A model generated the notes under the pieces. That model made no database searches. It worked only from the letters and a program-made list of their open reading frames with translations, and was not told the DNA's origin. A stretch of DNA of 64,000 bases from an uncultured Eubacteriales bacterium (GTDB taxonomy: Bacteria > Bacillota > Clostridia > Christensenellales > CAG-138), in contig OW818651.1 of NCBI GenBank assembly GCA_942492885.1, positions 2,306,959 to 2,370,958 on the forward strand, read 5' to 3'. The position numbers and the translations under genes are program-made. Below, piece after piece: positions 6,501 to 62,542 of this stretch. The stretch's first letter is position 1; every line of letters begins with the position of its first letter.

Positions 6501-7182
6501 AGCAAGAGCGCTGAGCAAGCGCTACAGCTCGACGCTTGCGCTCAACAACGTCGACCTGACACTGCCCAAGGGCAAAATCATCGGTCTATTAGGGCCGAAC
6601 GGCAGCGGTAAGACCACGCTGCTCAAGATCGTGGCGGGTCTACTCACGCCCACGACCGGAACCGTGCTCGTGAACAATCAGCCCGTTGGTGAGGGGACCA
6701 AAGCGCTGATTTCCTACTTGCCGGAGCGCACGTATCTGCCGGATTGGATGACGGTGGAAGACTGCCTCGATTACTTTGTAGACTTCTACAAAGACTTCGA
6801 CATGGCACGCGCCAGAGAGATGCTCTCTCGCCTGAACGTGCCGGCAAACAAGCGCATGAAGCAGCTGAGCAAAGGCACGCGGGAAAAGATGCAGCTCGTG
6901 CTGGTCATGTCCCGCCGGGCACAGCTCTACTTGCTAGATGAACCCATCGGCGGCGTAGACCCGGCAACACGGGATTACATCCTCGATACGATCATCGGCA
7001 ACTACGACAACGAATCCACCATCCTGATCTCCACACACCTGATTGCGGACGTGGAAAAGGTGCTCGACGAGTTCCTCTTCCTCAAGGATGGCGTGATCAC
7101 CATGCATGACACAACGGACAATGTCCGCGAGGCGCAGGGCAAGTCGCTGGACGAGCTGTTTCGGGAGGTATTCAGATGCTAA
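6484..7182 (+). CDS. ABC transporter ATP-binding protein
   Basis: Walker A GPNGSGKTT, signature LSKGTREKM, Walker B LYLLDEPIGGVD. Overlaps the GntR gene by 17 nt. Confidence 0.9.
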   Translation: MQSILEARALSKRYSSTLALNNVDLTLPKGKIIGLLGPNGSGKTTLLKIVAGLLTPTTGTVLVNNQPVGEGTKALISYLPERTYLPDWMTVEDCLDYFVDFYKDFDMARAREMLSRLNVPANKRMKQLSKGTREKMQLVLVMSRRAQLYLLDEPIGGVDPATRDYILDTIIGNYDNESTILISTHLIADVEKVLDEFLFLKDGVITMHDTTDNVREAQGKSLDELFREVFRC

Positions 7183-8045
7183 AGAAATTGATGAAACACG
7201 ACTTTCGCGCGCTTTCGCGCACGCTCTTCCCGCTGCAGATCGGTATTCTCGGCGGCGGCCTGGTTGCAACACTGCTCACCGCGCTGACCATTCGCCTCGG
7301 CGAAAACAGCGCCAACGCAGGCGGCTCGGCAATGCTGCGCGCGTTGATCATGGGTATTTCCGCAAGCGCTTCCGTGCTCATCGGCGTTGCCATCATGGCT
7401 TCCGCGCTGGTGACATTGCTGCTGATTTGCTATCACTTCTACCGCAGCTTTCTTGCGGACGAAGGATACCTGACCTTCACGCTGCCGGTTTCCACCAGCA
7501 AGCTGATCTGGTCAAAGCTCCTCACAGGCATGTTCTGGTCGCTGATCAACGCGGTTGTGATCATGGTGACGCTGCTCATCTTCGCGGTGTTCGGCACCAC
7601 CAGCAGCAGCATTGCAAACATGGACGTGCTGCAGGCCATCCGGATGTTCTTCACGGAAATTCTGCCGCAGGCAAGCCAGTATGTGAATGTGCCGCTCATG
7701 GCGGTTGAGATCGTCGTCATCGGCATCCTCGGATTCGCGGCGCAGATGCTTGAGATCTACTTTGCCATCGTGGTCGGCGGTCAGGTTGCTAAAAAGCACC
7801 GCATCCTCGCGGCAATCGGTATGTATCTGCTCATCAACATGGGAGTTGGCATCATCACGACGACGTTTATGTCGCTTGTGACGTTCGGCGAAGGGGTTTC
7901 GAGCCTTGCGCTCAACACCGTGCAGGAGGTCAGCACCTTCATGACATCGGCCTTCGGCTGGTATGGTGTGCTCTTCGCGGGTCTCGCGGTACTGTTCTTC
8001 TTCTTGATCCGTTCGATCTTTAAGAAGAACCTGAATCTCCAATAA
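7176..8045 (+). CDS. polytopic membrane protein, putative permease partner of the ABC ATPase
   Basis: 289 aa with many hydrophobic segments. Overlaps the ATPase stop by 7 nt. Confidence 0.6.
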   Translation: MLKKLMKHDFRALSRTLFPLQIGILGGGLVATLLTALTIRLGENSANAGGSAMLRALIMGISASASVLIGVAIMASALVTLLLICYHFYRSFLADEGYLTFTLPVSTSKLIWSKLLTGMFWSLINAVVIMVTLLIFAVFGTTSSSIANMDVLQAIRMFFTEILPQASQYVNVPLMAVEIVVIGILGFAAQMLEIYFAIVVGGQVAKKHRILAAIGMYLLINMGVGIITTTFMSLVTFGEGVSSLALNTVQEVSTFMTSAFGWYGVLFAGLAVLFFFLIRSIFKKNLNLQ

Positions 8046-46985: not shown

Positions 46986-48776
46986 ATGAAAAAAACGTTA
47001 CTATGTGTGCTTCTTTGCCTCATGGGCTGCTTTTTTTTAAGCGGGTGTGTGAAGCCGCCGATTCCGGAACCGAAAAACATCATGCAGCCGACACAGGCGC
47101 TGTTTGACGGATTGGACTCGCTCAACCCAAAGGGAATTTCGAAGCAGGATAACCAGCTTGGGCAGGAGCGCTACTATATTGTCGTGGATGACGGGCTTGG
47201 CATGAAGGGGTTTGTTTCGACTTTTTGCCAGAGCTATCGCGCGGCGATCACCGCTATCTCGGGTGTGAGTATGAGCAGCGAGAGCACCTGCGTTCGCGCG
47301 AGTGATCTCGTAAACGAGTATCCAACCGCGACGAACGGCGCAAGGAGTTTTTTTGAAGAGGCAGTAAATGCACAATTCTTCCAGTCCAAGAGCAACGACG
47401 CGGCTTCCGTAATTCAGGAGATGACGCAGGAGTTTAGCCGGAATCCCGATCAGGTGATGATTCTGGTTTCGGACATGATGATTCCAACCGAAGACGATTG
47501 CAGCGAGGCAGCAAAAGCCCTGCAGACAGCCGTCATCACACCGGAGCATACGACGATGGGTATCATCGGCATCATGGGCGACTTCCGCGGCACGATTGAA
47601 AACCTGCCGGTCAGCCCGACGACGGGATATAAGCGCAAGATCAGCGACTATATGGTCAAGGACGCGGATGCGAACGGGAATTTTAAGCATCCGCTGTACA
47701 TACTTTTCTTCGGCAATGAACAGGTTGTGCTCAACGCGATGGAGAAGACGATGAGCTCGCTTGAGCAAAGCGCTGTGTTCGATATGGAGCAAGATGTCAA
47801 AGCGCTGTATCTCACAGAGTATGACATCACGCGAAGAGACAAGGACGACATCATCACAAAATTCAATCTTGGTTATCAGGGATACAACGATGCGGAATAT
47901 CCCGCGCGGTTTCTGATCCGCGGCATGAGCGATGCGTCCGGCAAAGTAAAATATGAATCCACGACGCCGGTCAACGAAACGTATCAGCAGATGCTAAGCG
48001 ACCTGCCCATCGCAAAGCTCTATACGGAGGAGCGTGGAACTGCGGAGAAAAACGTCAAAATCCGCTGCACAGTTCCGTTTACATTGATCGACTCGTCGTT
48101 GAATGGCGCCACGATATCGGACAGCAGCAACTTCGTTGTGTCAGCACAAGATCTGAAGATCGAACGGACGGATTATTCCATCACCACAGAGGTTCTCGTG
48201 TTGGATTACAGCGAGACGGAGGCGGGCAAGGTACAGGCCGACTGGGTGCCCGCGGATGCAACGATGATCAGCGTTGCGAGTGCGGATATTGATGCGAGCT
48301 GCAAACGGGTCGATGTCGAGTTGAGCGTAGACACAGCCCTGCTCGATAAGGATGAGCCATTGCTATGTAAAGTGCGTGTGAGTATATCGGCGCAGCCCAA
48401 GTGGGATGCGATCGAGAAACTCTATGATGCTTCGTGGTTAAAAACCTGGGAATTGAACCTCGAGCAGTTCGATAACGAATCGATCTGCTTTGGACAGGTG
48501 GAGACTTCGGCGCGCTTTACGGCGGCGACCACCGCAAAAACTCCCTTCCTCTATAGTCTGGTCTATCTGGGACTTACGGAGGAGCAGATGAAGCAGGTGG
48601 ATGAAGCGATCAGCAGCAAGACGGCGGATTGTGTGCAGACGACGATGTTTGGGATCGTCGTGCGCGATGTTCCGATCAGATACAACGGCGACTATTCATG
48701 GAATTATGATGAGAGCTTTGGTGGCTGGGCATTCAGCGAAGAACAGGCAGAAATCATTCGCGCAGCGATTGATTGA
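46986..48776 (+). CDS. lipoprotein with possible degenerate vWA-like core (gene 1 of five-gene operon)
   Basis: Signal peptide with lipobox LSGC (MKKTLLCVLLCLMGCFFLSGC). YYIVVDDGLGMKGF ... QVMILVSDMMIPTED ... TTMGIIGIMGDF follows the beta-strand pattern of a vWA/Rossmann-like domain, but the MIDAS DxSxS motif is not intact. Confidence 0.5.
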   Translation: MKKTLLCVLLCLMGCFFLSGCVKPPIPEPKNIMQPTQALFDGLDSLNPKGISKQDNQLGQERYYIVVDDGLGMKGFVSTFCQSYRAAITAISGVSMSSESTCVRASDLVNEYPTATNGARSFFEEAVNAQFFQSKSNDAASVIQEMTQEFSRNPDQVMILVSDMMIPTEDDCSEAAKALQTAVITPEHTTMGIIGIMGDFRGTIENLPVSPTTGYKRKISDYMVKDADANGNFKHPLYILFFGNEQVVLNAMEKTMSSLEQSAVFDMEQDVKALYLTEYDITRRDKDDIITKFNLGYQGYNDAEYPARFLIRGMSDASGKVKYESTTPVNETYQQMLSDLPIAKLYTEERGTAEKNVKIRCTVPFTLIDSSLNGATISDSSNFVVSAQDLKIERTDYSITTEVLVLDYSETEAGKVQADWVPADATMISVASADIDASCKRVDVELSVDTALLDKDEPLLCKVRVSISAQPKWDAIEKLYDASWLKTWELNLEQFDNESICFGQVETSARFTAATTAKTPFLYSLVYLGLTEEQMKQVDEAISSKTADCVQTTMFGIVVRDVPIRYNGDYSWNYDESFGGWAFSEEQAEIIRAAID

Positions 48777-48808
48777 AGCACGGAAATATACACGGGAGGG
48801 TGATAACG

Positions 48809-49366
48809 ATGAATGGGAATGTGAAAAAAAGGGTTAGCGCGCGCGTGATCTGGACACTCATTCTGGCGGCTGCGCTTGCGTGGTTTCCGCCGACTTTGTA
48901 CCATGACTGGATCTATGCGAGGTTTTTTCTAGAGGATTCAGCGAAGGATATCGCAAACCAATTCTTGAACGGTACGCAGTGGATCCATCTCGGCGCGATT
49001 GTTGCGATCTGGCTGCTCAACCTTGTCTTCTTCATCATCAATCAAGCAAAAGGCGACAGCGGTAATCGCCTCATGGGACGGACATGGCTCCAGAACCTGT
49101 TTAACATTGTGCTGATTGCGCTGAGCGTTGCGGCGATGGTAGGTTATCGTTATGCAATCTCTTCTGAAAGCTGGATTGGCTTGTTCTTTGGAACGGCGGA
49201 CAGCATCAAAGCGATTGTCTGGATGCCATACTACGTCCTTTTGGCCTGCGGATTATTCCTCTGGTGTTTTTGCAGAAGGGCAGCGCCAGCGACCAACAGC
49301 CCCGTTACGTGCCTGGTCGCGAAATGGTTTGACAAACGTATGACGCGCGCGGAACGCACGCGCTGA
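48809..49366 (+). CDS. 4-TM membrane protein (gene 2)
   Basis: ATG 48809 follows a GGGAGGG RBS. Four hydrophobic helices. Confidence 0.6.
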   Translation: MNGNVKKRVSARVIWTLILAAALAWFPPTLYHDWIYARFFLEDSAKDIANQFLNGTQWIHLGAIVAIWLLNLVFFIINQAKGDSGNRLMGRTWLQNLFNIVLIALSVAAMVGYRYAISSESWIGLFFGTADSIKAIVWMPYYVLLACGLFLWCFCRRAAPATNSPVTCLVAKWFDKRMTRAERTR

Positions 49367-49381
49367 GAAAGAGAGTACTGT

Positions 49382-50974
49382 ATGAAGAAATTTGTACTTG
49401 TCGCAATAGGCGGAACGGGCATGCGCGTGGCGCAGTCCCTCGTTGCGCTGGCGGCGTCCGGCTTTTTGAGCGATCTTTGCGGAGCGGATTCAAACTATCT
49501 GCTCGAAATCCGGCTTGTCGATCTCGACATCGTTGCGGGCAGTGACAAGATTGAGCTTGAGGAGATGATCCGCACAGTCAACGAGGCGATCCCGCAGCTC
49601 TCCGTCATTGTGGACGAGAATACGGCGGAGCACCGCTGGAAGGCAAAGGGCATCGACGGAATGATGAATCTACAGCCGCCGATCGATGACCGCAGCACGA
49701 TCAACGACCTTGTGCGCGAAGGGTTTTTGTCCGAGCCCGAGTCACTTGCCTATCACGCGTTGTTTGCCGAGGACGACCGCACGATGATCCTGCGCCGCGG
49801 CTGCAAAGGCCGCCCACGCATCGGCTCGTTGCTCTGGGCGGAGCACTTCGACCTAGACTGGAAAAACCGCAGCGGGTTCTGGCAGTCCATCTTCGGCGAC
49901 ATCGGCACGGATGACGAATTGCGCGTCATGTTCGCGGGTTCGGTCTTCGGCGGCACGGGCGCCAGCGGCACGCCGACATTGGCGCAGAAATTCATCCGCG
50001 CCTGCCGCAAGGGCGACATCGGCAACACCGCACCGTTTGCGAAGCACGTTGCGCTGACATTGATGCTGCCGTATTTCGATGTCGGTCAGGATACCGATGT
50101 CGACAGCGGACTCTTCTCAATCAACAGCAAGATGGCGCTGAAATATTACGAAACCTCCGAGATTCTAACCGAGGTGGAGTTTGCCCAGTTCGTCGGCGAT
50201 GACCGCCGCCAAATGGAGAAGAAGGACGAGGAAGGCGCGTGGAAACGCGTGCGCCTGGATCGCAACAGCCGTGTGGACGAAGGGCAGAACGATCCTTCCA
50301 TGCCCGCCGAGCTGATGGCTGCCATCGGCGCTTGCCGGTACTTTGCGGGCGACATCCCCAAGGCGGACAATGTTTTCCGGAAGGTCTATGTTCCGCTGAA
50401 ATGGAGCACCGCGAATTCGGAGCAGAGCGTTCCGCCGGAGGAAGCAGTTCCGCTGAACAGCTTTGACTATTTCCCCGTCTCCAACGGCGGCGCGGATGCG
50501 GGAAGCGTCCGCTCCGTGAGCGATTATATTCTGCGGCTCGAGCGCTTTTGCCTGATGCTGAGCAGTTATTATCGCACCAGTGCGGCGATCAAGACGTCGT
50601 GGAACTACCGGCCGGAGGTGTTTCGCACCGTCTGGAAGAAGCAGAAAGATCTACTGGATACGTATGACAGCCGGATCGACGGCGTGGGATCGGCTCTCGC
50701 GTTTGCCGAGAGTATGTTCCGCTGGCTGGAGGAGCTGGATCACCATGGCATGCACGATCTACTGAAGATTGAGGGCGACGAGAAGCGCAACACGCCGCAC
50801 ATACAATCGGCCGTGAATGACGCGGCACGGGAAGGCTCGACCAAGCTCGACCTGCTCGGCATCGCCTGCTCAGACATCACAACAAAGATGAACTCGGCGC
50901 GTGTAGACCCGCAGGGCGCAACGAAATATTTCGTTTCCTCCCTGATGGAGTGCTGCGTGCTCCGCGCGCTGTAA
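49382..50974 (+). CDS. FtsZ/tubulin-superfamily GTPase-like protein (gene 3)
   Basis: VLVAIGGTGMRVA resembles the T1 loop GxGGxG. RRGCKGRPRIGSLLW resembles the FtsZ T3 GAGANPEVGR. MFAGSVFGGTGASGTPTLAQ resembles the tubulin signature GGGTG(S/T)G. The C-terminal ~300 aa is unassigned. Confidence 0.6.
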   Translation: MKKFVLVAIGGTGMRVAQSLVALAASGFLSDLCGADSNYLLEIRLVDLDIVAGSDKIELEEMIRTVNEAIPQLSVIVDENTAEHRWKAKGIDGMMNLQPPIDDRSTINDLVREGFLSEPESLAYHALFAEDDRTMILRRGCKGRPRIGSLLWAEHFDLDWKNRSGFWQSIFGDIGTDDELRVMFAGSVFGGTGASGTPTLAQKFIRACRKGDIGNTAPFAKHVALTLMLPYFDVGQDTDVDSGLFSINSKMALKYYETSEILTEVEFAQFVGDDRRQMEKKDEEGAWKRVRLDRNSRVDEGQNDPSMPAELMAAIGACRYFAGDIPKADNVFRKVYVPLKWSTANSEQSVPPEEAVPLNSFDYFPVSNGGADAGSVRSVSDYILRLERFCLMLSSYYRTSAAIKTSWNYRPEVFRTVWKKQKDLLDTYDSRIDGVGSALAFAESMFRWLEELDHHGMHDLLKIEGDEKRNTPHIQSAVNDAAREGSTKLDLLGIACSDITTKMNSARVDPQGATKYFVSSLMECCVLRAL

Positions 50975-50996
50975 AGACGGATACGGAGGCAAAGTT

Positions 50997-53900
50997 ATGT
51001 CGTTTTATCACTGGTTCTCGTCACACCCGAATGAAATCGATCTCAGCGGCGGCATCTACAAGATGCAGGATATCGCCAAAGAGCTGCGCATCGTAGACGC
51101 CAAGCAGGAAGCGCGGCCGAAGCAGACGGATTTCCGGCGGATCAGTTCCGTGCCGGATATCTGGAGCCAGCACCGGCTGTTTGAGATGCTGCTGCTCAAC
51201 AAGGCGGAAGACCCGAGCTATCTGGAGTATGAGGCGATTGCAAAGCGCGAATGGCGCGCAATGGTTGCGCTGCTTGTGCTTGCGGAGTCGTATGGCGTCA
51301 AGGTGCATACGAAACAGATTCGATTCTCTGATTCCGTGAGCAGCGCGTATCTGCGCGCGGCATACAGTACCCGTCCAAACAGCGATCGATGGCCGAGCAT
51401 GGAGATTTACTACATTGAGGCCGGGGATATGCAGTATCCCATCGCGATGTCTTCTCCAACGGTGCACGTGATCCCGACCAAGGACGCGTGGCGTAACCTC
51501 AGGATGGTGTATCCGGGTCGGATTCCGTGGATCACGGACAATCAGGTCCATTCACCGGTTTTGGACGACGACGGTCGCGCGACTCCGTTCCAGCTTGGCG
51601 AAAAGGAGGCGGACAAGACCCCCGCTCTTATGCCCGTGCACGCGCTGATGCTGCAACGCTGGCTGATGAAATATCGCGATGACCTCGCGGCGCAGCAGCG
51701 CCTGCAAGGTGCCGCGGCAACGCTGCAAAGTGTGCGCCTGTTGAGCGATTATGAAAAAGCGCTGTCGGAGGCGTTCCGCCTCGAAGCGCAGCGCATGCCG
51801 AATATGATGAGCTTCTTTACCGCCGCGGAACAGCAGGACGGCATGAAGATCGGAGATCTGCACGTCCCGAAAAACCTCCGCATCTTCCTCGATCGCGCGT
51901 TTTATTCTGTGATCGATCAGGCTTCGTCTCTGCCGGAGGTGCTCGATACGCATCGCTTTGCGGGCGGCATCGGCAAGGAATGCCTGGTTAGCAAGAAGCA
52001 GCTCGACGGTAAATGGACGCACTTCTTTGTCACGATGCCGGTCACCGGAGAATTCTGGAAGCTTTGGCACGACAACGAGGACTTAATTCCCGAATATCAT
52101 CTCACCTGCACATTCTCGCCGGACGGCGTACGCGTGGACAAGATCAAAGCATCCATCGTCATCGGCGATATCACGTTCTCCAAGACGTATTCTGTGGCGC
52201 AGATCGATTCGGATCCATGGAGAAATCTGTGCGTCGCGGGTATTTGGCCGCGCCAGAAGATCTCGGATTGGAAGGATTATTATCTGTTCTGTAACGCGAT
52301 CAACGGCTATCGTGTGGAGCCGGAACACGAGGATATGATCACCTATGAGAAGACGTATTCCGACAAAGAGGGGTTGGAGGGCACGCTCAACTACTATAAG
52401 CTCAACAGAGCGCCGGAGAGCTGCAAGCTCTTCAAGGATAACAAGCTCATCGGCTTTATGCAGGTTCGCGAGCGGCAGATGATCCTTCCCGGTGAAAAGA
52501 CGAGCGTCTACCGCGCGTCGATCGACTTTGGTACCTCCGCAACCACGCTTTACGGCGGGGTGGATGACAACGAGCCCGGGAAAATTTCCGGCATGAATAT
52601 GTGGAGTTTGCCGCTGATGAATACAATTGACGGGGCGGGGATTGAAACTTCGAGGTTGGAGAGATACTTCTTCCCGCCTTTGCCAGTGCCGTTGCATAAA
52701 GTGTCATTGAAGCAGAGCCGGGCTGAAGCAACAACGGTTCCTTTTGGTATCCTGTTAAAAAGTGCCGCTGATGTGAAGGCATATCCAGATTGCATTCCGT
52801 TGCAGACAGTTTTAGCCGATGCTTTGGATACGAATGGTCCCAGACAGATGCTTGCAGACAGCTGGATTTTCTTCCGTGCTTTCATGCAAGCGAGGACAAT
52901 TGTATTATGGCCTAAGCTGCATTCGAACTTAAAATGGGATCAATCATCGCAGTTAAATCAATATCGTGTTCAAACAATTTTGACAGAAATCATGATGATG
53001 GTCGCGCTTGAAGCTCGTGTGAATCATTGCGGTTCATTATCAATCACAGCATCCTATCCATTATCCTTTGAGATTAGCATGCGCGACTCATACTTTGAAG
53101 CACTGAATGCCATGTTGGATATAACTGCAACACTGACTGGATTGAAAGTAGTTCCGCCACCCGTAAGTGATAATAAACCAATAACAAAAATAGCACCTTT
53201 GGTAGGAAGCATTACGGAAAGCGAGGCCGTCTACCGATATTCTGTAGCGCAGGATAGTTACAATCAGAATTATTTCGTCATTGATATCGGCGGTGGATCA
53301 ACCGATATGTTCTTAAGTTTGATAGACGATAATCATCGAAGGAATTCTTACTCGACATCGCTTGGATTTGGAGCACGCGCAGTTTTGATCAACAAACTTC
53401 GACAGAATGGCAACTTGCTTCTACACAGATTAGTCCATGAATCAGACCTTGTGAAAACTAGTGCAGTCCGAGACTATGGTCGATTTATCCTTGAACGAAC
53501 TTCAAGTTTTGGACATAGTTTTGTGGAAGACTTGTTCTCGATGCGGATTGAGAGAGATTTGAATAATCCTGCTTCAGCAGGCGCGCCTGAAAACTACGGC
53601 GAAATGTTTATCAACACTTGCGCAGCAAGCAATCTTGATCCGGCGCAAGTAAAAAACGATCCGCAAGCTCACAAAGAAGGAGTTTCCTTCTTGGAGCTAA
53701 AGAAACGAATAGCTTTCTTCTTGGCTGCGAGCGTTTGGCTATCTGGCCTCATGATTCGCGGCGGTCAGAACACTGGAATGAATGTTTCACTGCTATTTGC
53801 TGGCAACGGTTCTAAGATGATCCGCTGGTTGTCTCCAGACTTAGACCGAATTCGCTATTTTATCACGCTAATGTTCCAGCAGGCATCGGGTACCGCGATC

Positions 53901-54326
53901 ACCCGCGAGCAAATGAGCTGTCGGTTTTCCCTCAAACCCAAAGAAGAGGTGGCGTACGGATCACTGGCAGACTTTCCGACGGGATTTGTTGCGGAAGAAG
54001 GTGGTCCAACGCAGCAAGTGACGTTTGGCGGAGCAAGTATCAATGCAGACGATTCGGGTGCGTTCCATCCGTTGCACTACATCACGACGAATATTAATAC
54101 GGACTCAAAAGAGTTTGCAAACTTCATGCATGAATACAGAAGGATTGCATCGCAAAGCTTCGGTTGGGAGTTTTTCGAGAATGAGTATGACCTGAAAATT
54201 CTGTCAAACGGCGGGGTAAATGCGGCAATCAATCGACATCAGCCGGACAACGGATACTTCCTGAACGCTGTCGAGGTGGTCGCTGGATTCTATCTGGGTA
54301 ACGACAAGAAGGACTTAGCGAACTAA
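50997..54326 (+). CDS. 1109-aa protein: unknown N-terminal ~500 aa plus Hsp70/actin-fold (ASKHA) ATPase domain (gene 4)
   Basis: The ordered Hsp70 NBD motif series is present: SIDFGTSATT (phosphate-1), ITASYPLSFE (VPAYF-like), ITESEAVYRY (EPTAA-like), YFVIDIGGGSTDMF (phosphate-2), LLFAGNGSKM (adenosine), KPKEEVAYGSL (NPDEAVA-like). Confidence 0.65.
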   Translation: MSFYHWFSSHPNEIDLSGGIYKMQDIAKELRIVDAKQEARPKQTDFRRISSVPDIWSQHRLFEMLLLNKAEDPSYLEYEAIAKREWRAMVALLVLAESYGVKVHTKQIRFSDSVSSAYLRAAYSTRPNSDRWPSMEIYYIEAGDMQYPIAMSSPTVHVIPTKDAWRNLRMVYPGRIPWITDNQVHSPVLDDDGRATPFQLGEKEADKTPALMPVHALMLQRWLMKYRDDLAAQQRLQGAAATLQSVRLLSDYEKALSEAFRLEAQRMPNMMSFFTAAEQQDGMKIGDLHVPKNLRIFLDRAFYSVIDQASSLPEVLDTHRFAGGIGKECLVSKKQLDGKWTHFFVTMPVTGEFWKLWHDNEDLIPEYHLTCTFSPDGVRVDKIKASIVIGDITFSKTYSVAQIDSDPWRNLCVAGIWPRQKISDWKDYYLFCNAINGYRVEPEHEDMITYEKTYSDKEGLEGTLNYYKLNRAPESCKLFKDNKLIGFMQVRERQMILPGEKTSVYRASIDFGTSATTLYGGVDDNEPGKISGMNMWSLPLMNTIDGAGIETSRLERYFFPPLPVPLHKVSLKQSRAEATTVPFGILLKSAADVKAYPDCIPLQTVLADALDTNGPRQMLADSWIFFRAFMQARTIVLWPKLHSNLKWDQSSQLNQYRVQTILTEIMMMVALEARVNHCGSLSITASYPLSFEISMRDSYFEALNAMLDITATLTGLKVVPPPVSDNKPITKIAPLVGSITESEAVYRYSVAQDSYNQNYFVIDIGGGSTDMFLSLIDDNHRRNSYSTSLGFGARAVLINKLRQNGNLLLHRLVHESDLVKTSAVRDYGRFILERTSSFGHSFVEDLFSMRIERDLNNPASAGAPENYGEMFINTCAASNLDPAQVKNDPQAHKEGVSFLELKKRIAFFLAASVWLSGLMIRGGQNTGMNVSLLFAGNGSKMIRWLSPDLDRIRYFITLMFQQASGTAITREQMSCRFSLKPKEEVAYGSLADFPTGFVAEEGGPTQQVTFGGASINADDSGAFHPLHYITTNINTDSKEFANFMHEYRRIASQSFGWEFFENEYDLKILSNGGVNAAINRHQPDNGYFLNAVEVVAGFYLGNDKKDLAN

Positions 54327-54341
54327 GAAAGGAGCAACGAA

Positions 54342-55631
54342 TTGAAACGCAAACATAGATTACTCGCAATCGGCGCGATGGCGCTGCTGCTACTTGCGCT
54401 GTGCCTACCCGTTCTGTCGGGCGCGCTCGCGGCGGAAGAGGAGAAGCCGCTGATCGTGCCCATCGGGAAGAATACTGAGGTGTTGGGTGAGGACGGTCTG
54501 CCAATCGGTACGCTCAAGTCCAATCAAACGTTCGTGCCGGTGAGTGGCGAGAGCCCATACGACGTGATCGTGATCTACGACCAAGCAGCGGCAAACAAAG
54601 CCGCAAAGAGCGAAATCATCGCGGGAATGGCACTGGTGCTCTTAAGCTATGCGGACGCGGCAGAAGCAACGGAGCCAACGACAGAGACTGCCGGAGCAAA
54701 TCTGCCAACACAGGGTTGGATTGATGCAAACCTCGTCGTAATCGCTTTGTCAGCGCAACACGCGGTAGATGCAAACACGATAGCATCGAAAGAAGCGGAA
54801 ATTGTTTCCTTGAAGAATGCTGCTGACGAACCCGGCGGCAATAGCGGCGAGAACGGTAACGTGCCAACAGATATAAAATCCTCCGGCATCTTCAGCGCGG
54901 AAAAGATGGAAGTCTGGGTTCCGGTTGCGGCAATCGCGCTTGGGGTGCTCGGTATCGGTCTACTGGCATGGCTTGCGATATCGACAGCAACGACTGCTTG
55001 GGACACGGAGAGCCAAACAAGACTGCTCACGAAGATGAACGACCAGCTTTCTGCCGGGTTGAAAGCAATCTCTCCGCTGAAAGTCGAGCAGTTCGCTTGG
55101 CCGCGAGAGGGGCACGTAAAGCTCGCGCCGGACATAATAGAGCAGCTAGCGGCGGTTGCCGGGCAAAACAGCGCTTACAGTGCGCGTTATCAGGAGCCTG
55201 AGGTTCCAGTAGTGGTTGAACCCGTCCGGATTCCGGAAGGCGAGGAGCCCGACCTGCTCCAACTCGCAAACAGTCTTGCGGGGGTTGCCTCCGCCGCCGA
55301 ATGGCACGCGTTGGTGCGGGATGCGGGTTGGCGCGCGGTTCTCCTGCAGGCAAACCCAACGGAGAAGGGCACCTACATAGCAGACGACAGCGGATACTCC
55401 ATCATCGGTTGCCTGATGCGCACACAGGATGCGGAGCTTGCCTACGTTGTGCCGTCCTATCAGGACCCCAACGCCAGCGAACAGCGTTGGGGTGAGTTTT
55501 ACGCCGTAAGTGAAGATATGTCGGTGAGAAACTATCGCGTAGATGCGCTGGCCGTGATGTATATCGAGCGGGGCACCTTCTTCCTGCAAAAGTCGAAAGG
55601 CAAGCTTACGCGCAGACCGCAGCGTTTCTGA
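54342..55631 (+). CDS. bitopic membrane protein with signal peptide (gene 5)
   Basis: TTG start 7 nt after AAAGGAG. N-terminal signal sequence, one internal TM (VWVPVAAIALGVLGIGLLAWLAI), and a ~200-aa C-terminal domain of unknown family. Confidence 0.55.
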   Translation: MKRKHRLLAIGAMALLLLALCLPVLSGALAAEEEKPLIVPIGKNTEVLGEDGLPIGTLKSNQTFVPVSGESPYDVIVIYDQAAANKAAKSEIIAGMALVLLSYADAAEATEPTTETAGANLPTQGWIDANLVVIALSAQHAVDANTIASKEAEIVSLKNAADEPGGNSGENGNVPTDIKSSGIFSAEKMEVWVPVAAIALGVLGIGLLAWLAISTATTAWDTESQTRLLTKMNDQLSAGLKAISPLKVEQFAWPREGHVKLAPDIIEQLAAVAGQNSAYSARYQEPEVPVVVEPVRIPEGEEPDLLQLANSLAGVASAAEWHALVRDAGWRAVLLQANPTEKGTYIADDSGYSIIGCLMRTQDAELAYVVPSYQDPNASEQRWGEFYAVSEDMSVRNYRVDALAVMYIERGTFFLQKSKGKLTRRPQRF

Positions 55632-56735: not shown

Positions 56736-56922
56736 GCATTACTCTCCCAACAAGAATAGCAATAGTATACCCTTTTACGCCGCGAAGCGCAATTCTTTCG
56801 CGGTTTTCCGGCGGCACAGTTCGCCTTCCGGAGCAAAAAAAGCCTGCCGCGCACATGCAATTACTGTCTATCACAGCGCGGATAGGATATAATCAAACCA
56901 TCGAAAAGATCGGAGAAGTGTT

Positions 56923-57897: not shown

Positions 57898-58051
57898 TAG
57901 TTTGAGATATGAAATAAGCGCGTCGGTCGTGTGATCGGCGCGCTATTGTTTGTTCTAATATTTACAAGTTTATGAATGTACAAAAAAACTATTTGAAATT
58001 ACACGTTGAAATGGTAGTATGTTCTTGTATGTTTAAATAGGAGGGTTAGTT

Positions 58052-58795
58052 ATGAATCAACCCCTTGTTATTACTGACGAATCTTATCAAATTGCCTGGG
58101 CAAAAGCTATAATCGAGTTGAAGAGAAATAATTGGGACATATGGAACTTGGTAGTTCAAATTAAGAATCCGACCCTAAATGACGATCGAATCACTGGCAT
58201 TTTGTGTGAGTTTGCTGGAACACACGGGTTAATTACTCCTGAACATGTAGAACATACGATTTTTCCAACTCGGTTGTATCGAAAATACCCTGAAAAGGCA
58301 TTGCTTTACAGAGCATATAAGAAGTATTTTACGCTGACGAGAAAAATGGATCACAGTGGGTGGGGCACATACTTTCAAAGTATGATTCATTATCCGACTG
58401 AAAATGGATACATTGATCAGTTGGGTAATATTATTGAGAAAATCAATGAAAGGCCAATTACATATAAAACTGCATATGTCATGCTAATACCTGAACCAGA
58501 GAGAGATCGTAATAAGATAATGGCAGCTCCGTGCCTGAACTATGTTGCCCTGCAACTTGAGAATGAAGAAGAAGCAAGGCACGGAAGACAAATAAGTTTA
58601 CTAGCAGTATATCGAAATCACGATTTTATGCATCGTGCATTTGGCAATTATCTTGGTCTATGTAGTCTCCTGAAATATATATGTGCGGAGACTGATTCTA
58701 CAATCGGTTGTATCACTTGTATCTCTTCGCATGCGTTTGTTGAGAATCAAAAAAACGAGCTAATAGCTATAGCAAGAGAGATTACCAGAGGATAA
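58052..58795 (+). CDS. thymidylate-synthase-fold (ThyA/dCMP-hydroxymethylase-like) enzyme
   Basis: YIDQLGNIIEKINERP aligns with ThyA HIDQITTVLNQLKNDP. MAAPCLNYVALQL aligns with LAPCHAFFQFYV (catalytic Cys). LLAVYRNHDFMHRAFGNYLGLCSLLKYICAE aligns with [30 protein letters not shown]. The N-terminal part is divergent. AGGAGGG RBS. Confidence 0.6.
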   Translation: MNQPLVITDESYQIAWAKAIIELKRNNWDIWNLVVQIKNPTLNDDRITGILCEFAGTHGLITPEHVEHTIFPTRLYRKYPEKALLYRAYKKYFTLTRKMDHSGWGTYFQSMIHYPTENGYIDQLGNIIEKINERPITYKTAYVMLIPEPERDRNKIMAAPCLNYVALQLENEEEARHGRQISLLAVYRNHDFMHRAFGNYLGLCSLLKYICAETDSTIGCITCISSHAFVENQKNELIAIAREITRG

Positions 58796-58796
58796 A

Positions 58797-59837
58797 ATGG
58801 AAAATTATACTTTAAGAGAATTAAAAATAGAGGTTACACATCGATGCCCGTTAGCTTGCGTTCATTGCTCCAGTAATGCTCATTCGGAAAACACAAGAGA
58901 AATGCCGTATGATAAGTGCCTTGAAATAATTCATAATGCACATCAAATGGGTGTTAAAGAAATTGCTTTTTCTGGTGGAGAGCCTTTATGTTGGAACGGA
59001 ATCGTAGAAGCTGTGAAGGTTGCACATGATATGGGCATCAAAACAGTGATGTACTCTTCGGGTAATGCAAATAATGCCAAAGCAATCTTTGAAGAACTAA
59101 CCAAAGCAGGATTACAAAAAATCGTGTTTAGCATATATTCGTGCGATGAGGCGGAGCACAATAAAATAACCCGAATTGCAGATAGCTTTCAAAATACTAT
59201 TAGTGCAATCGAATGCGTTAAGAACTTAGGAATACAGCCGGAAGTTCATTTTGTGGCATTAGCAAGTAACTATAAAAGCATAGAGAAGTTAGTGTACTAT
59301 CTTAAATCAATTGGAGTGGATCGTACAAGCATATTAAGATTTGTCCCGCAAGGTAGAGGAAGATTGATTCATAAGCAAGGAGTTATGACAAAGAAGCAAA
59401 GCCTTGAGTTGTCCCGAATGATAAAAAGACTTTGGGAGAAAGGATTCGACATTAGGACAGGTTCACCTTATAATGTTTTACTGATTAATGAAGAACCCAA
59501 ATGCATGGCAGCAAAAGATAGAATGATAATATCACCAGATTTGGATGTCTTTCCTTGCGATGCGTTTAAGCAAATTACAGCAGAGCAAATTACGACCCCA
59601 GTGAAGTTTTCAAACTTAGGCGAGGCTACACTACAAGAGTGCTGGGATAATTCATCTTACTTTCGAGAGGTACGGAAAGCTCTTAGCGAAATCACAGAAC
59701 CACCGTGCGTAAGCTGTGGAGCAAATAAAAAATGTCTTTCGGGCTGTCTGGCGCAAAAGTTTTTGGAGTATAATACACTATACAAGAATCCTGACCCTGC
59801 TTGTCTGCTTGGAGGAGATTGTGGTGGTATACAGTAA
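58797..59837 (+). CDS. radical SAM enzyme with C-terminal SPASM domain
   Basis: CPLACVHC (CX3CX2C). C-terminal CVSCGANKKCLSGC (CX2CX5CX3C) plus upstream Cys residues. Starts 1 nt after the stop of the previous gene. Confidence 0.85.
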   Translation: MENYTLRELKIEVTHRCPLACVHCSSNAHSENTREMPYDKCLEIIHNAHQMGVKEIAFSGGEPLCWNGIVEAVKVAHDMGIKTVMYSSGNANNAKAIFEELTKAGLQKIVFSIYSCDEAEHNKITRIADSFQNTISAIECVKNLGIQPEVHFVALASNYKSIEKLVYYLKSIGVDRTSILRFVPQGRGRLIHKQGVMTKKQSLELSRMIKRLWEKGFDIRTGSPYNVLLINEEPKCMAAKDRMIISPDLDVFPCDAFKQITAEQITTPVKFSNLGEATLQECWDNSSYFREVRKALSEITEPPCVSCGANKKCLSGCLAQKFLEYNTLYKNPDPACLLGGDCGGIQ

Positions 59838-61017
59838 AACAGCTTTCTTCAACGATTTTACATCTTCAGTGCAGAGGTGTAATCTTTGCGAAAGAATGTG
59901 TGATAGAAAAAAAGTATTATCTTCAGTTAATGGCAACATTAATTCTAAAGTCATGTTCATTGCAGAAGCTCCTGGACGGTTAGGCGCGGAATGCACAGGA
60001 ATACCATTGTATGGAGACAGAACTGGCGAGAATTTCGAAACGCTACTTGCCAATATAGGATGGAGCAGAGATGATGTCTTCATAACCAACGCAATCTTGT
60101 GTAATCCGCAAGATGAAGATGGAAATAATGCAACACCAACTGCCAAGGAAATATCAAATTGTAGCTATTTTCTATCGATGACGATCGAACTTATTAATCC
60201 CGAAATCGTTGTTACTTTGGGTATCAAAGCACTTGAAGCTATTAAGTATATCGATCAGCACGACTATACTTTACGGGAAAGCGTTGCAAGCTTGCAGCCT
60301 TGGAACAAGAGATTCCTATACCCTTTATACCATATGAGTCCCCGTGCAGCTATTCATAGGTCAATGATTCAACAACGTGCTGATTTCATTAAGTTGTCGC
60401 ATGCTGTATCACCCACCGAAGGTATCAAGAAGAAAGCAACCTCAACACCCAAACGGAGTGCAAGCCTAAATACAAATGTACGATTATTAGATATGATAGC
60501 AACTATTGTTGCGGAAGCGAAATTAGTTTCCTTTTTTAAGCTTACTAAGCTGCTTTATCTAATTGATCTTAAATATTTACAGCAATTTGGAGAGTCAATT
60601 TCTGGTGGTATTTATTTAAGAATGCAGGAAGGTCCGTGGATTCCATCTTTAAAGAATATTATCAATGATTATAATCATGAGTTGTTTGAGCTGAATTTTG
60701 TTGCAAGAAAACCGATTCTTTGCACAATAGATAATTTCTATGAAACAGGTCTGAGCGAAGTTGAAAGCGAATTTATTCTGGATATAGTTAGAACGTATTC
60801 AACAGTTGACGACGCAGGAATGAAGCTTGTTGTTTATCATACGAAACCAATGAAATATATTCTAAATGCTGAGAGAGAACGTCGGAACATGTTGAAAACC
60901 CCAGTTCTATATAAAAACTGTACTGTGATTGACATTGATCAGAGAAACAATAATACGAGCGTTGCACCCCCCACTCCACGACCCGTAGACCCCACCACCA
61001 CCTCCACTGATGTATAA
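59821..61017 (+). CDS. family-4-UDG-like domain fused to Panacea/DUF4065 domain
   Basis: N-terminal half: CNLCERMC, MFIAEAPG (GEAPG-type motif A), FITNAILCNP, YHMSPRA (HPS-type motif B). C-terminal half: FFKLTKLLYLIDLKYLQQFGESISGGIYLRMQEGPWIP is typical of DUF4065/SocA-like. GTG start 59821 follows GGAGG (59811-59815) and overlaps the upstream stop by 17 nt. The last 17 codons lie in the 85-bp repeat. Confidence 0.6.
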   Translation: MVVYSKTAFFNDFTSSVQRCNLCERMCDRKKVLSSVNGNINSKVMFIAEAPGRLGAECTGIPLYGDRTGENFETLLANIGWSRDDVFITNAILCNPQDEDGNNATPTAKEISNCSYFLSMTIELINPEIVVTLGIKALEAIKYIDQHDYTLRESVASLQPWNKRFLYPLYHMSPRAAIHRSMIQQRADFIKLSHAVSPTEGIKKKATSTPKRSASLNTNVRLLDMIATIVAEAKLVSFFKLTKLLYLIDLKYLQQFGESISGGIYLRMQEGPWIPSLKNIINDYNHELFELNFVARKPILCTIDNFYETGLSEVESEFILDIVRTYSTVDDAGMKLVVYHTKPMKYILNAERERRNMLKTPVLYKNCTVIDIDQRNNNTSVAPPTPRPVDPTTTSTDV

Positions 61018-61051
61018 TATCCTTGTCGACGCACGCACATGAAAAATCCCC
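60967..61051. repeat. 85-bp direct repeat, copy 1
   Basis: CCCCCCACTCCACGACCCGTAGACCCCACCACCACCTCCACTGATGTATAATATCCTTGTCGACGCACGCACATGAAAAATCCCC. GC-rich relative to its surroundings. Confidence 0.9.
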
Positions 61052-61216
61052 ATAAGAATGCATGCCAAAGTAACGAACCGAGACGCGGGATAAGTCGAAA
61101 GTTATTAACGTTTAAAGCTTTGAAAACGCATGAAAAAGGAGCAACCTTTCGATTGCTCCCAGAGGGTGCTAATCAGCTGTTTGTTTTGTGTTACAACGAT
61201 GCACTCCTTAGTATGT

Positions 61217-61780
61217 TTACTTCTTATATCCGCACTTGGGACATGCGCCGTTTTCGTTTAGAGCAATACCGCACAACGGGCAGCGGTCAATGGCGTTGTG
61301 AGTTTCGAATACTTCGGAAGCCGCGTTAACGCCGCTTGTGAAGGTCAGCTTGGCAATGTTCAGCTTGTCCTTCAGCAAATCATACACAATCTTGATCATG
61401 CCTTCAACGGTCATAGTCTCTTTGGTTACAACCAAACGGCATTCCGGATATGCGGTTGCAAGCGCGGTTTTGAAGGCGGGTCCCTTCATTTTGTTGGTCG
61501 GGGCACCATCTTTAATCCCCTGCTTCTCATAAACATCGAGGATCGCAGGTAACAGGGGATCATCTTCGCGGAGGATCAGCGCATGGTCGAAGTTTCTCAG
61601 CACATCCCACGCGGTCTTCTGAATTTCATTGCAGGGGAAAACCATGTTGACACCGGTATTGACGGAATCTTCCACCTCGATCGTCAGAATGCCGGTGTGC
61701 CCATGTAAGTACTGTGCTTCGCCTTTGAATCCATAGAATCTATGCGCGTACTGTAGGTCTAGCGTTGTGATACTTCTCAT
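61217..61780 (-). CDS. 6-pyruvoyl-tetrahydropterin synthase / QueD-fold protein with C-terminal zinc ribbon
   Basis: YAHRFYGFKGEAQYLHGHTGILTIEVE...NFDHALIL matches the PTPS/QueD pattern (aaH...c..lHGH.y.v.v...lDH..L). An appended CPLCG...CPKCG follows. AGGAG RBS. Confidence 0.7.
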   Translation of the reverse strand: MRSITTLDLQYAHRFYGFKGEAQYLHGHTGILTIEVEDSVNTGVNMVFPCNEIQKTAWDVLRNFDHALILREDDPLLPAILDVYEKQGIKDGAPTNKMKGPAFKTALATAYPECRLVVTKETMTVEGMIKIVYDLLKDKLNIAKLTFTSGVNAASEVFETHNAIDRCPLCGIALNENGACPKCGYKK

Positions 61781-61861
61781 AGCTTTTCTCCTTATATATT
61801 ATTTACGGGGTTATTCCATGCTCCCGTATACGCATCGATCATACTGATCCGGAATTAGTTG

Positions 61862-62257
61862 TCATGATTCCTTCGAGTTACGTTCGCATTCCGAGCAGAT
61901 ACCTTTAAAAACAATATCATGTCCAGTAAATGAAAAGCCGTGTGTATCTTTGATCGTTTTCTCCAAATCCGCCTTATATTCCATGTCCACATCAAAAACA
62001 CGGCCACACTTGACACACTTGGCATGGTAATGATTGCTGCAGATATGGTCAAATCGATCAGCACTACCGGGGAACTCTCGTTTCCGAATTTCGCCTAAGT
62101 CGGATAACCGCTGCAGATTCCGATACACGGTTCCTCTGCTGATATGTGGGTGTTCTTTTACGATTGCACTATATACCTCGTCTGCAGTCGCGTGGCAACT
62201 CAATTTGTTGACAGCCTCAAGTACCAAAGCGCATTGAATCGTATTTCGTCTAATCAT
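61862..62257 (-). CDS. Fur family transcriptional regulator
   Basis: 131 aa. HTH region ISRGTVYRNL, HHAKCVKCG ... CSEC metal sites. Confidence 0.85.
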   Translation of the reverse strand: MIRRNTIQCALVLEAVNKLSCHATADEVYSAIVKEHPHISRGTVYRNLQRLSDLGEIRKREFPGSADRFDHICSNHYHAKCVKCGRVFDVDMEYKADLEKTIKDTHGFSFTGHDIVFKGICSECERNSKES

Positions 62258-62458
62258 ACAGCCATCCTAGTACAGTATAGAATCTTTATTAGTATAATAT
62301 CTCAATAAGGACAATATGTCAATCTTTCATTCGAATCTGTAAAGCGCACACTCAGTTTTCCGCAAATCTCTCCAATGGCAGCAACTAAGAATTCAGGAAA
62401 ATTCTGCGTTCGCGATGCATCCCTTGATGTTTTGAAAAACGAAAAGTGAGAAAACGCT

Positions 62459-62542
62459 CCCCCACTCCACGACCCGTAGACCCCACCACCCCCTCCACTG
62501 ATGTATAATACCCTTGTCGGCGCACGCACATGAAAAATCCCC
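62459..62542. repeat. 85-bp direct repeat, copy 2
   Basis: Same sequence as 60967-61051 with three substitutions and a one-base length difference in the leading C-run. Contains a TATAAT box and lies just upstream of the GIY-YIG gene. Confidence 0.9.

Follow-up and report, generated by a model that had tools for sequence, protein, structure and literature searches.

What a bacterium could gain by linking a thymidylate synthase-like enzyme, a radical S-adenosylmethionine (SAM) enzyme and a DNA glycosylase in one operon is the question raised by a locus in an uncultured Eubacteriales bacterium (assembly GCA_942492885.1, contig OW818651.1, positions 2,306,959 to 2,370,958; this 64,000-nucleotide stretch is referred to below as the window). 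Three genes, here called the trio, lie head to tail on its forward strand. Gene 1 (58052-58795) encodes a 247-residue protein of the thymidylate synthase (ThyA) fold, gene 2 (58797-59837) a 346-residue radical-SAM/SPASM enzyme, and gene 3 (59821-61017) a 398-residue fusion, read from a GTG codon, of a uracil-DNA glycosylase (UDG) with a Panacea domain. We consider it probable that the trio is a conflict or defence cassette acting on uracil-type pyrimidine chemistry. The fuller proposal, that of a mobile and most likely anti-phage cassette working through the complete mechanism set out below, is a tentative one to which we would give somewhat less than an even chance.

The open reading frame (ORF) coordinates and junctions claimed in the initial annotation were confirmed by direct reading of the sequence. 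The TAA of gene 1 (58793-58795) is followed by the ATG of gene 2 at 58797, and the GTG of gene 3 at 59821 lies within a 17-nucleotide overlap with the end of gene 2 (stop codon 59835-59837), with the sequence GGAGGAG just 5' of it. The maximal ORF of gene 3 starts at 59716; the start giving 398 residues is backed by gene predictions made independently on copies of 95% identity and is also the first position of the homologue alignment. The trio has a GC content of 0.384, compared with a window mean of 0.538 and flanks of 0.55-0.59, and a third-codon-position GC (GC3) of 0.33, compared with 0.77-0.78 in the adjoining esterase and EF-Tu genes. The low-GC anomaly noted earlier thus stands, with corrected figures, 38.4% in flanks of 55-59% replacing about 30% in a chromosome of about 60%. 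By composition the trio is foreign, that is, horizontally acquired.

Gene 1 had been credited with a ThyA-like core on the strength of its motifs. No Pfam family, PF00303 included, matched it at E<=0.01, and the sole sequence lead was the archaeal thymidylate synthase model TIGR03283, at 63.1 bits with a cut-off of 174.55. A profile search of 1.84 billion representative proteins collected 1,322 relatives at E<=1e-3 and did not reach canonical ThyA. An AlphaFold2 model built from a 114-sequence alignment (predicted local distance difference test score (pLDDT) 93.3; predicted template-modelling score 0.92) was then compared with solved structures using Foldseek. At E<=1e-3 this gave 396 matches in the PDB, every one a member of the ThyA superfamily, including the thymidylate synthases (TS) of L. 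casei and human as well as MilA (TMq 0.61). The best target-normalised template-modelling (TM) score, 0.67, was obtained with AfhB, a short phage deoxycytidylate (dCMP) hydroxylase, and a comparison with viral TS and dCMP hydroxymethylases gave 41 matches at TM 0.55-0.65 and at most 16% identity. The fold assignment was therefore upheld by the model, by the Foldseek matches and by the viral structures. As searches with Pfam, TIGR03283 and a profile against the PDB all miss it, gene 1 is, on its modelled structure, a distinct lineage of the ThyA fold outside the curated families.

The residues conserved among the 114 homologues point in the same direction. P160-C161-L162, Y187-R188, G198-N199-Y200 and S225-S226 are invariant in 114/114, and N163, C223 and D191 are near-invariant (at least 90%). 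The Pro-Cys context of the catalytic cysteine, claimed initially, is thus intact, and the accompanying 'YxRxxD' motif needs correcting, since the sequence actually runs Y187-R188-N189-H190-D191...N199 and is one residue shorter. Alignment by hhalign places the Pro-Cys motif on ThyA P145-C146, a weak match usable only as an anchor, and makes C161 the putative catalytic nucleophile, equivalent to ThyA C146. Judged by spacing, R188, D191, N199, H227 and Y/F229 would correspond to ThyA R166, D169, N177, H207 and Y209; in a comparison of 30 proteins of the trio clade D191 was found in 26/30, H227 in 28/30 and Y/F229 in 26/30. The same weak alignment offered no obvious equivalents of ThyA R21, R126' or R127', or of the folate site. 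Gene 1 appears to keep the cysteine nucleophile, the asparagine that specifies uracil and contacts of the type made to a 2'-deoxynucleoside 5'-phosphate. The invariant residues C161, Y107 and N199, together with R/K195 and C223, are common to the trio clade and to a sister clade described below; R188, D191, H227 and Y229 belong to the trio clade alone.

Gene 2 matched Pfam Radical_SAM (PF04055; E 7e-21, 75.5 bits against a threshold of 29.5) and SPASM (PF13186; E 9e-7, 29.5 bits against a threshold of 21.5). Its CX3CX2C motif, C17-x3-C21-x2-C24, is kept in 103-104 of 104 homologues, the SPASM cysteines at positions 236, 254, 282, 304, 307, 313, 317 and 336 are kept in 98-100% of them, and the GGE motif corresponds to S59-P63. 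The protein probably binds three [4Fe-4S] clusters. Its closest solved relative was PqqE, matched at full length through the SPASM region (E 3e-18), and the second best was BlsE, which acts on a nucleoside. None of the NCBIfam radical-SAM equivalogs was reached by gene 2, the best being PqqE at 132 bits with a cut-off of 381.35, and the viperin model gave 54.9 with a cut-off of 180. The pVip models of PADLOC matched at E 9e-19 over the generic radical-SAM core only (residues 13-187). pVip and gene 2 are alike in being radical-SAM enzymes of a defence setting for which a nucleotide is a possible substrate; in contrast to gene 2, which carries a full SPASM domain, viperins have none. Homology to the gp53 isomerase of phage M6 was considered and rejected, gp53 having been published as spore photoproduct lyase (SPL)-like and not SPASM, so that the two are set apart by description.

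The first part of gene 3 is a family-4-type UDG domain (59821-60438, forward strand), identified from Pfam, PDB matches, Foldseek and invariant residues. Pfam UDG (PF03167) was matched at E 2e-25 (90 bits, threshold 24.3), the PDB sequence matches at E 1e-18 were the family-4 UDGs of T. maritima, S. tokodaii and T. thermophilus, and Foldseek gave TMt 0.77-0.81 to the UDGs of the same three organisms. Of the four iron-sulphur (Fe-S) cysteines, two (C94, C114) never vary among 57 homologues and two (C20, C23) are kept in at least 90%; all four align with those of family-4 UDGs. E49, N90 and H171 are invariant as well. Motif A, AEAPG, keeps the glutamate (E49) of the family-4 motif GE(A/G)PG, and motif B, YH171MSPR (Y-H-M-S/G-P-R), keeps the histidine of the family-4 motif H-P-S-P. 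The scores fell below the curated cut-offs of TIGR00758 (82.8 against 125.3 bits) and NF040953 (88 against 250). The domain appears to represent a divergent UDG subfamily, whose substrate may not be plain uracil.

A disordered linker of about residues 207-216 (60439-60468, forward strand), with pLDDT <50 and variable, gapped alignment columns, leads from the glycosylase to the SocA/Panacea domain (DUF4065, residues about 217-376), which together with a tail and the stop codon occupies 60469-61017 on the forward strand and was placed from Pfam and the model. Panacea PF13274 matched residues 241-330 with positions 1-98 of its 113 model positions (E 7e-10; 40.2 bits, threshold 25.7), and this half was modelled with pLDDT 80-97; the C-terminal tail is rich in Pro and Thr, disordered and lineage-specific. 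Thus the earlier assignments of both proteins were borne out, for gene 2 by Pfam, the PqqE match and the conserved cysteines, and for the fusion of a family-4 UDG to DUF4065 by Pfam scores above threshold and by PDB and Foldseek matches. Panacea is known mainly as an antitoxin domain. It neutralises partner proteins through direct binding (PMC8832971), and the paper describing this names no glycosylase, radical-SAM or TS partner.

To place the trio among genomes, one genome per species from 185,579 species was scanned, giving 211 gene 1 relatives, of which the best 80 loci were examined. The order of gene 1, gene 2 and gene 3 (UDG plus Panacea) was kept in all 28 loci whose gene 1 was at least 36% identical, and one truncated contig besides these was also consistent with the trio, so that about 29 of the best 80 matches carry it; among the species genomes scanned it is rare and patchy. 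Its carriers belong to Bacillota, Desulfobacterota, Planctomycetota (including Brocadiaceae), Verrucomicrobiota, Nitrospinae, Sumerlaeota, Bdellovibrionota, Terriglobia, Actinomycetota and Chloroflexota, with one Bathyarchaeia archaeon, a spread of more than ten phyla. They are predominantly anaerobes, which fits the four Fe-S clusters predicted for the trio. A metagenome search started from gene 3 found the Panacea half in 80/80 loci and both genes 1 and 2 in 56 of the 57 loci with enough upstream sequence. The exception, L160 (1-2706), had no detectable gene 1, a gene 2 shortened to 303 residues and small broken ORFs upstream, and is probably a decaying copy of the cassette. The co-conservation that the initial annotation had made a point to be checked was therefore found in genomes (28/28) and metagenomes (56/57) alike: the trio is an obligate unit inherited together, and chance comes nowhere near explaining such recurrence.

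Its parts have evolved at different rates. Median identity to the window among metagenome homologues was 59% for the UDG half, 46% for the radical-SAM enzyme, 41% for the ThyA-like protein and 37% for Panacea, making the UDG half the most conserved and Panacea the fastest-evolving part. Matrices of pairwise distances, compared between the four parts, gave correlations of 0.82-0.91, which indicates that the genes of the trio co-diverge without shuffling. Panacea distances correlate with those of gene 1 at r 0.89, of gene 2 at 0.91 and of its own UDG half at 0.84; mirror-tree partial correlations of Panacea, 0.43 with gene 2 and 0.34 with gene 1, were not decisive. A fourth conserved gene or a precursor peptide was sought among 133 flanking ORFs and rejected, none being present.

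The flanks of the trio are variable, and many carry defence and mobility genes. Matches in the flank scan included PbeA, type I and type IV restriction enzymes, Gabija GajB, DRT, capH, integrases and resolvases. In L081 and L082 a Shedu SduA_C gene lies directly downstream of the trio, in L170 the trio sits in a cluster of Dam, Dcm, Vsr, MutH-like and type I genes, and in L171 it accompanies Vsr-HNH-Dcm-Dcm-AAA_5-LlaJI. In L173 (5415-18629) it is cargo of a Tn7-like element, with TnsA, TnsB and TniB/TnsC upstream and a tyrosine integrase, TniQ/TnsD and TnsE downstream. The proximity to defence genes that the initial annotation had proposed to test was thus seen with Shedu and with the restriction-modification (R-M) clusters, and the Tn7-like element shows the trio inside a mobile element. 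A phage origin was rejected, as 0/50,697 phage genomes contained a gene 1 relative by tblastn; genes 2 and 3 gave only generic, distant matches in the same genomes, and 2.9 M viral contigs of IMG/VR yielded only two distant gene 1 relatives, in loci of the sister type. Plasmid carriage of the trio was likewise rejected, PLSDB giving sister-clade copies of gene 1 only. No model of PADLOC-DB v2 matched gene 1 or gene 3 and no description of the trio was found in the searchable literature, where a prior in-silico mention may exist; a match to a characterised cluster, which the initial annotation had named as a refutation, was thus not found.

The sister clade itself offers the nearest view of what gene 1 might do. 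About 50 of the 80 loci (L029-L080) carry gene 1 relatives at 24-31% identity in an operon made up of genes for a small protein, a repressor of the HTH_3 type, a peptidase of the M78 (ImmA/IrrE) type, the relative of gene 1 and a 5-hydroxymethyl-2'-deoxyuridine (5-hmdU) DNA kinase; examples lie at L065 6480-10949, L033 8762-10585, L037 9986-10897, L036 10488-11525 and L039 10506-11381. The kinase (PF18723, E 1e-112) is present in all sister loci and is often fused to a thymidylate-kinase domain. Variable additions are MazG plus MazG_C (16 loci), a canonical PF00303 TS homologue (12) and a protein resembling deoxycytidine triphosphate (dCTP) deaminase (11), and in 4-5 loci a gene-2-like radical-SAM/SPASM enzyme of 38-44% identity is found. 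Sister operons occur in Chloroflexota, Cyanobacteria, Planctomycetota and others, and sister-clade gene 1 (25-28% identity) is carried by 22 PLSDB plasmids, 14 of them conjugative. These operons are encoded by cells and plasmids, behind regulators like CapH/CapP.

Enzymes of these types are used by phages with 5-hydroxymethyluracil (hmU) in their DNA, which put 5-hmdU in the place of T and then modify it in the DNA (PMC8989533, PMC5889632). In E. coli, DS-4 ('NTTI'), which combines a TS, a deoxynucleoside monophosphate (dNMP) kinase, a 5-hmdU DNA kinase, a TIR protein and Nmad2, has been validated as an anti-phage system (DefensePredictor, Science 2026, PMC13092281). Its TS shares 27% identity (E 2e-18) with the second TS of the sister operons, and the gene 1 family profile showed no detectable sequence homology to it (hhalign E 0.18). 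The sister operons resemble DS-4 but have a different set of regulators and an extra ThyA-fold protein. Like the trio, both are mobile, cellular rather than phage-borne, and defence-associated, and both pair a ThyA-superfamily enzyme with an enzyme acting on a uracil-derived base in DNA. The trio differs from them in lacking the kinase, TIR protein, Nmad2, MazG and HTH/M78 regulator (no 5-hmdU or dNMP kinase was found in any trio locus examined), in having as DNA-acting partner a glycosylase fused to Panacea in place of the kinase, and in its obligate radical-SAM enzyme, which is occasional in the 5-hmdU-kinase operons. The ThyA-like/radical-SAM core of the window thus appears as one member of a broader group of conflict systems of cellular origin, based on the chemistry of deoxyuridylate and 5-substituted uracil, in which the constant partner is an enzyme acting on a uracil-derived base in DNA. 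In L047 (11616-12092) a Thoeris ThsB-type TIR protein was observed just 3' of a sister-type operon, echoing the TIR protein of DS-4.

The mechanism that we propose would run as follows. Gene 1 would act on C5 of a nucleotide resembling deoxyuridine monophosphate (dUMP) and, with the coupled gene 2, would yield a non-canonical uracil-type nucleotide, or divert the dUMP/deoxythymidine monophosphate (dTMP) pool, instead of producing dTMP. DNA made with the system switched on, mainly that of a replicating phage, would come to carry a uracil-type base, and the Fe-S UDG domain of gene 3 would recognise and excise it, leaving abasic sites that stall replication. Panacea would be a gate at the protein level, keeping one or both of the partner enzymes (genes 1 and 2), or else the UDG half, from acting before the cell is infected. 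The 5-hmdU kinase of the sister and DS-4 systems would then occupy the position held here by the UDG, that of reading the base in DNA; the sister operons would be gated transcriptionally through HTH/M78 proteins, and the trio, which has no regulator, would rely on Panacea instead. Observed are the folds, the catalytic motifs, the strict inheritance of the three genes together, the mobility, the defence-type surroundings and the kinship of gene 1 with the 5-hmdU-kinase operons; we infer from these what the substrate and product are, what gene 2 does, the part of the UDG as executioner rather than antidote, and the gating.

Several points weigh against this proposal. Neither phmmer nor a 30-sequence profile led from gene 1 to any ThyA in the PDB, and the gene 1 family profile aligned with E. 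coli ThyA at E 0.011 by hhalign, the ThyA sequence used being approximate. The sister clade is without equivalents of R188, D191 and H227, which makes extrapolation from one clade to the other risky. In the window itself residue 110 of gene 1 (58379-58381) is Ser, against Arg in 28/30 proteins of the trio clade and 47/47 of the sister clade, and residue 158 is Ala where most homologues have Gly; these exchanges could mean an altered or weakened gene 1 activity in the sub-lineage of the window. Since SPASM enzymes mostly modify peptides or proteins, gene 2 might serve to mature one of the other two proteins. No dNMP kinase accompanies the trio, which leaves the route from a modified dNMP into DNA unsupported, and the specificity of the UDG pocket may be for U, hmU or another base. 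The mirror-tree signal for the partner of Panacea is confounded by shared phylogeny and by rate differences. The window cassette is set among housekeeping genes with no recognised defence neighbour, L172 likewise has no recognisable defence genes beside its trio, and the defence role is argued from neighbouring genes, as guilt by association and not from a formal enrichment statistic. As a separate observation, Ser110 and Ala158 also occur in an 83%-identical relative of the gene 1 of the window.

Among the rival explanations the main one is a tripartite toxin-antitoxin (TA) system of the DarTG kind, in which genes 1 and 2 would be a toxin pair installing a uracil-derived lesion in DNA, either directly or by way of the dNTP pool, gene 3 a dual antidote whose UDG clears the lesion from host DNA for restoration by base-excision repair and whose Panacea half binds and neutralises the toxin, and infection the event that breaks the balance. 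Panacea is best known as a directly binding antitoxin, the gene order is toxin first with translational coupling, and Panacea distances follow genes 1 and 2. The pattern of gene 3, a conserved enzymatic half joined to a fast-evolving Panacea half, is also that of DarG, which has a conserved macrodomain and a variable toxin-binding domain. However, the 5-hmdU kinase of the sister operons is a downstream processing enzyme and not an antidote, so that by symmetry the UDG would be an effector, and constant synthesis and removal of lesions would be costly; we regard this explanation as unlikely. Should gene 2 instead be a maturase that modifies gene 1 or gene 3, for example at Cys/Ser or by a cross-link, genes 1 and 3 alone would carry out the nucleotide or DNA chemistry, the modified protein being active solely in its matured form. 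This is in keeping with its nearest families, the peptide and protein maturases PqqE, MftC, sactisynthases and HxsC, with its strong co-variation with both partners, and with the existence of a radical-SAM-matured defence effector (HXS system, PMC13128918). Neither a precursor peptide gene nor an RRE domain is present, however, all equivalog scores of gene 2 are far under the cut-offs, and in the sister operons a gene-2-like enzyme takes the place of MazG, TS or dCTP deaminase; this replacement of nucleotide-pool enzymes suggests a role at the nucleotide level. We consider a maturase improbable. Nor do we find much to commend an R-M-like arrangement, slightly less probable again, in which a modified pyrimidine made by genes 1 and 2 labels the cell's own DNA or nucleotide pool and UDG::Panacea serves as a 'restriction glycosylase', cutting out the base that is unmodified or modified in another way from incoming DNA, such as phage genomes with U or hmU. 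In its favour the trio of L170 and L171 is embedded among R-M genes, the catalytic motifs of the UDG are intact, and base-excision restriction enzymes together with Brig1 show that glycosylases can restrict DNA. But ThyA-fold enzymes act on mononucleotides, contacts of that type are retained in the trio clade, and the arrangement implies a genome-wide replacement of a host base that is not known in these taxa; moreover a lone glycosylase would suffice against U/hmU phage DNA (Brig1 is a single gene), and yet genes 1 and 2 are obligate.

The initial annotation had itself left two hypotheses standing, (a) a modified pyrimidine nucleotide or base acting as an antiviral antimetabolite and (b) a module for modifying and excising bases in DNA, its toxicity being gated by Panacea. 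The second is favoured here, because a 5-hmdU kinase, which acts on DNA, accompanies the sister clade of gene 1 in every case. MilA/MilB and BcmA/BcmB are pairs of a ThyA homologue and a nucleotide N-glycosidase whose products are free modified pyrimidines, and they share with the trio a ThyA-fold C5-modifying enzyme and a hydrolase of N-glycosidic bonds. On hypothesis (a) genes 1 and 2 would similarly build a C5-modified pyrimidine nucleotide, on which in its free form the UDG-like domain would work as an N-glycosidase, freeing a base poisonous to the metabolism of phages or competitors, and the structural match of gene 1 to MilA, the presence of the nucleoside-acting BlsE among the nearest solved relatives of gene 2 and the binding of dUMP by UdgX-type proteins (PDB 6ajp) are all consistent with it. 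It is the weaker of the two, since gene 3 has an Fe-S DNA-glycosylase fold, with the DNA-scanning cluster of family 4, and not the fold of a MilB/BcmB-type nucleotide N-glycosidase. The trio further differs from these pairs in its added radical-SAM/SPASM and Panacea parts and in its context of defence and mobile elements; no transporter, export, resistance or further biosynthetic or tailoring genes were found in the flanks, the sister systems employ a DNA kinase, and a three-gene mobile cassette beside R-M genes is atypical of natural-product clusters. We therefore hold an antimetabolite to be quite improbable. Hardly credible at all is a housekeeping or self-serving function, either alternative (anaerobic) thymidylate synthesis or uracil repair, or hypermodification of a mobile element's DNA against host restriction. 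Homologues do bear the names 'thymidylate synthase' and 'uracil-DNA glycosylase family protein' at NCBI, the mostly anaerobic carriers fit the Fe-S content, and ThyA homologues and radical-SAM enzymes occur in phage hypermodification; but the trio is rare, patchy, foreign in composition and absent from phages, it lacks 5-HMUDK and aGPT-Pplase, the radical-SAM enzyme of phage M6 is SPL-like and not SPASM, and the cassette moves without replication or structural genes.

The closest parallels of the proposed conflict cassette lie in known systems from which it nevertheless differs in architecture. The phage pathways of thymidine hypermodification (a dUMP hydroxymethylase, 5-HMUDK and aGPT-Pplase, with or without radical-SAM and pyridoxal-phosphate enzymes; PMC5889632, PMC8989533) likewise join a ThyA-superfamily enzyme, a radical-SAM enzyme and a protein of DNA-glycosylase fold around the substituent at C5 of uracil in DNA. 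In contrast to gene 3, with its UDG fold, aGPT-Pplase has a helix-hairpin-helix fold, and the further differences are those given above. Brig1, a glycosylase of the UDG superfamily, defends through abasic sites in phage DNA containing alpha-glucosyl-5-hydroxymethylcytosine (PMC11078745), and base-excision restriction enzymes exist (PMC10273834). Brig1 and gene 3 are alike at the level of the fold, both being nearest to archaeal and thermophilic family-4 UDGs, and in their occurrence in defence islands. Whereas Brig1 is a single gene acting on a base made by the phage, gene 3 is fused to Panacea and accompanied by ThyA-like and radical-SAM genes, an association which suggests that the host makes the substrate or cofactor itself. 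Panacea TA pairs (PMC8832971) and TA defence proteins of fused or dual-mode type such as DarTG and CapRel (PMC9712102) have in common with the trio a tight, overlapping operon and mobile, defence-type contexts; compared with the Panacea pairs the trio has three genes, its Panacea domain shares a protein with a conserved Fe-S glycosylase for DNA, and its putative toxin would be a two-enzyme pathway. Ophion (radical-SAM, PHP and PRTase) and HXS (a peptide matured by a radical-SAM enzyme) were examined as matches and rejected, their architectures being different.

The kind of system to which the trio would belong is thus known, from nucleotide- and DNA-modification conflict systems, glycosylase defence and Panacea-gated modules; the mechanism behind it has a real chance of being novel. 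A broader idea, which we think rather doubtful and state for its reach, is that the trio and the 5-hmdU-kinase operons represent one class of immunity. The host itself would place a non-canonical pyrimidine in DNA replicating during infection, and a dedicated DNA enzyme, the glycosylase in the trio and the kinase in the sister systems, would read it and turn it into a lethal lesion. If true, this would amount to 'defensive DNA sabotage', phage DNA hypermodification seen in a mirror. New enzymology would follow as well, with a ThyA-fold enzyme and a three-cluster radical-SAM/SPASM partner working on C5 of deoxyuridylate, and Panacea would act after translation to trigger or gate an effector of several enzymes, beyond a simple TA pair. 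Should the trio defend against phages, its gene architecture is one missing from current defence catalogues, and it would unite ThyA-type pyrimidine modification, radical-SAM nucleotide chemistry and base-excision defence under antitoxin-style control. It would then be a compact three-gene handle on how the TS/5-hmdU-kinase systems might work, might hold a new radical-SAM reaction on pyrimidine nucleotides, and includes a divergent Fe-S glycosylase whose base specificity could help in the detection of modified bases. The anaerobic hosts and the four predicted Fe-S clusters may explain why screens in aerobic E. coli missed the trio.

At its 5' side the cassette begins just after a terminator-like hairpin of the native upstream esterase gene (57917-57944, forward strand; a 12-bp stem with 8 GC pairs, then a T-rich tail), where GC falls from about 0.60 to about 0.37 and which marks the left edge of the low-GC segment. 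The stretch 57993-58045 (forward strand) contains a candidate promoter, TTGAAA-16-TAGTAT with an upstream TG, and an alternative at 58006-58033, both consensus matches only; a strong ribosome-binding site, AGGAGGG, was read at 58039-58045 ahead of gene 1.

At the 3' end, two copies of an 84-nucleotide direct repeat, 96% identical (60968-61051 and 62459-62542), enclose a 1.4-kb insert (61052-62458), the left copy containing the last 50 nucleotides of gene 3. The insert has a GC content of 0.45, between those of trio and host, is missing from the close relatives L086-L089 and encodes no recombinase; it looks like an insertion with target duplication that came later than the trio. It encodes, on the reverse strand, a QueD/6-pyruvoyl-tetrahydropterin-synthase-like protein with a C-terminal zinc ribbon (61217-61780), which is sub-threshold for QueD, and a Fur/PerR-family regulator (61862-62257). 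A 7-deazaguanine link through these two genes was considered and rejected: they are not conserved with the trio, and their absence from close relatives and their position between the repeats exclude them from the system.

Further upstream, five consecutive genes on the forward strand (46986-55631) encode proteins of 596, 197, 530, 1109 and 429 residues, for which no significant Pfam or PADLOC match was obtained. Weak matches were to Ppx-GppA/ASKHA in the 1109-residue protein and to TPR-like repeats in the 596-residue protein, and GC drops to 0.42-0.48 inside the 1109-residue gene (about 52500-54000). The genes for the 530-, 1109- and 429-residue proteins have counterparts in L086, a locus that begins inside the homologue of the first of these. 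The cluster may be another uncharacterised system. L086 also has, at 6351-7943, an SSF-family transporter gene between a MraY-like glycosyltransferase and the esterase; this gene is not in the window (where the corresponding position is about 56800-56912), which marks the neighbourhood as a small hotspot of gene gain and loss.

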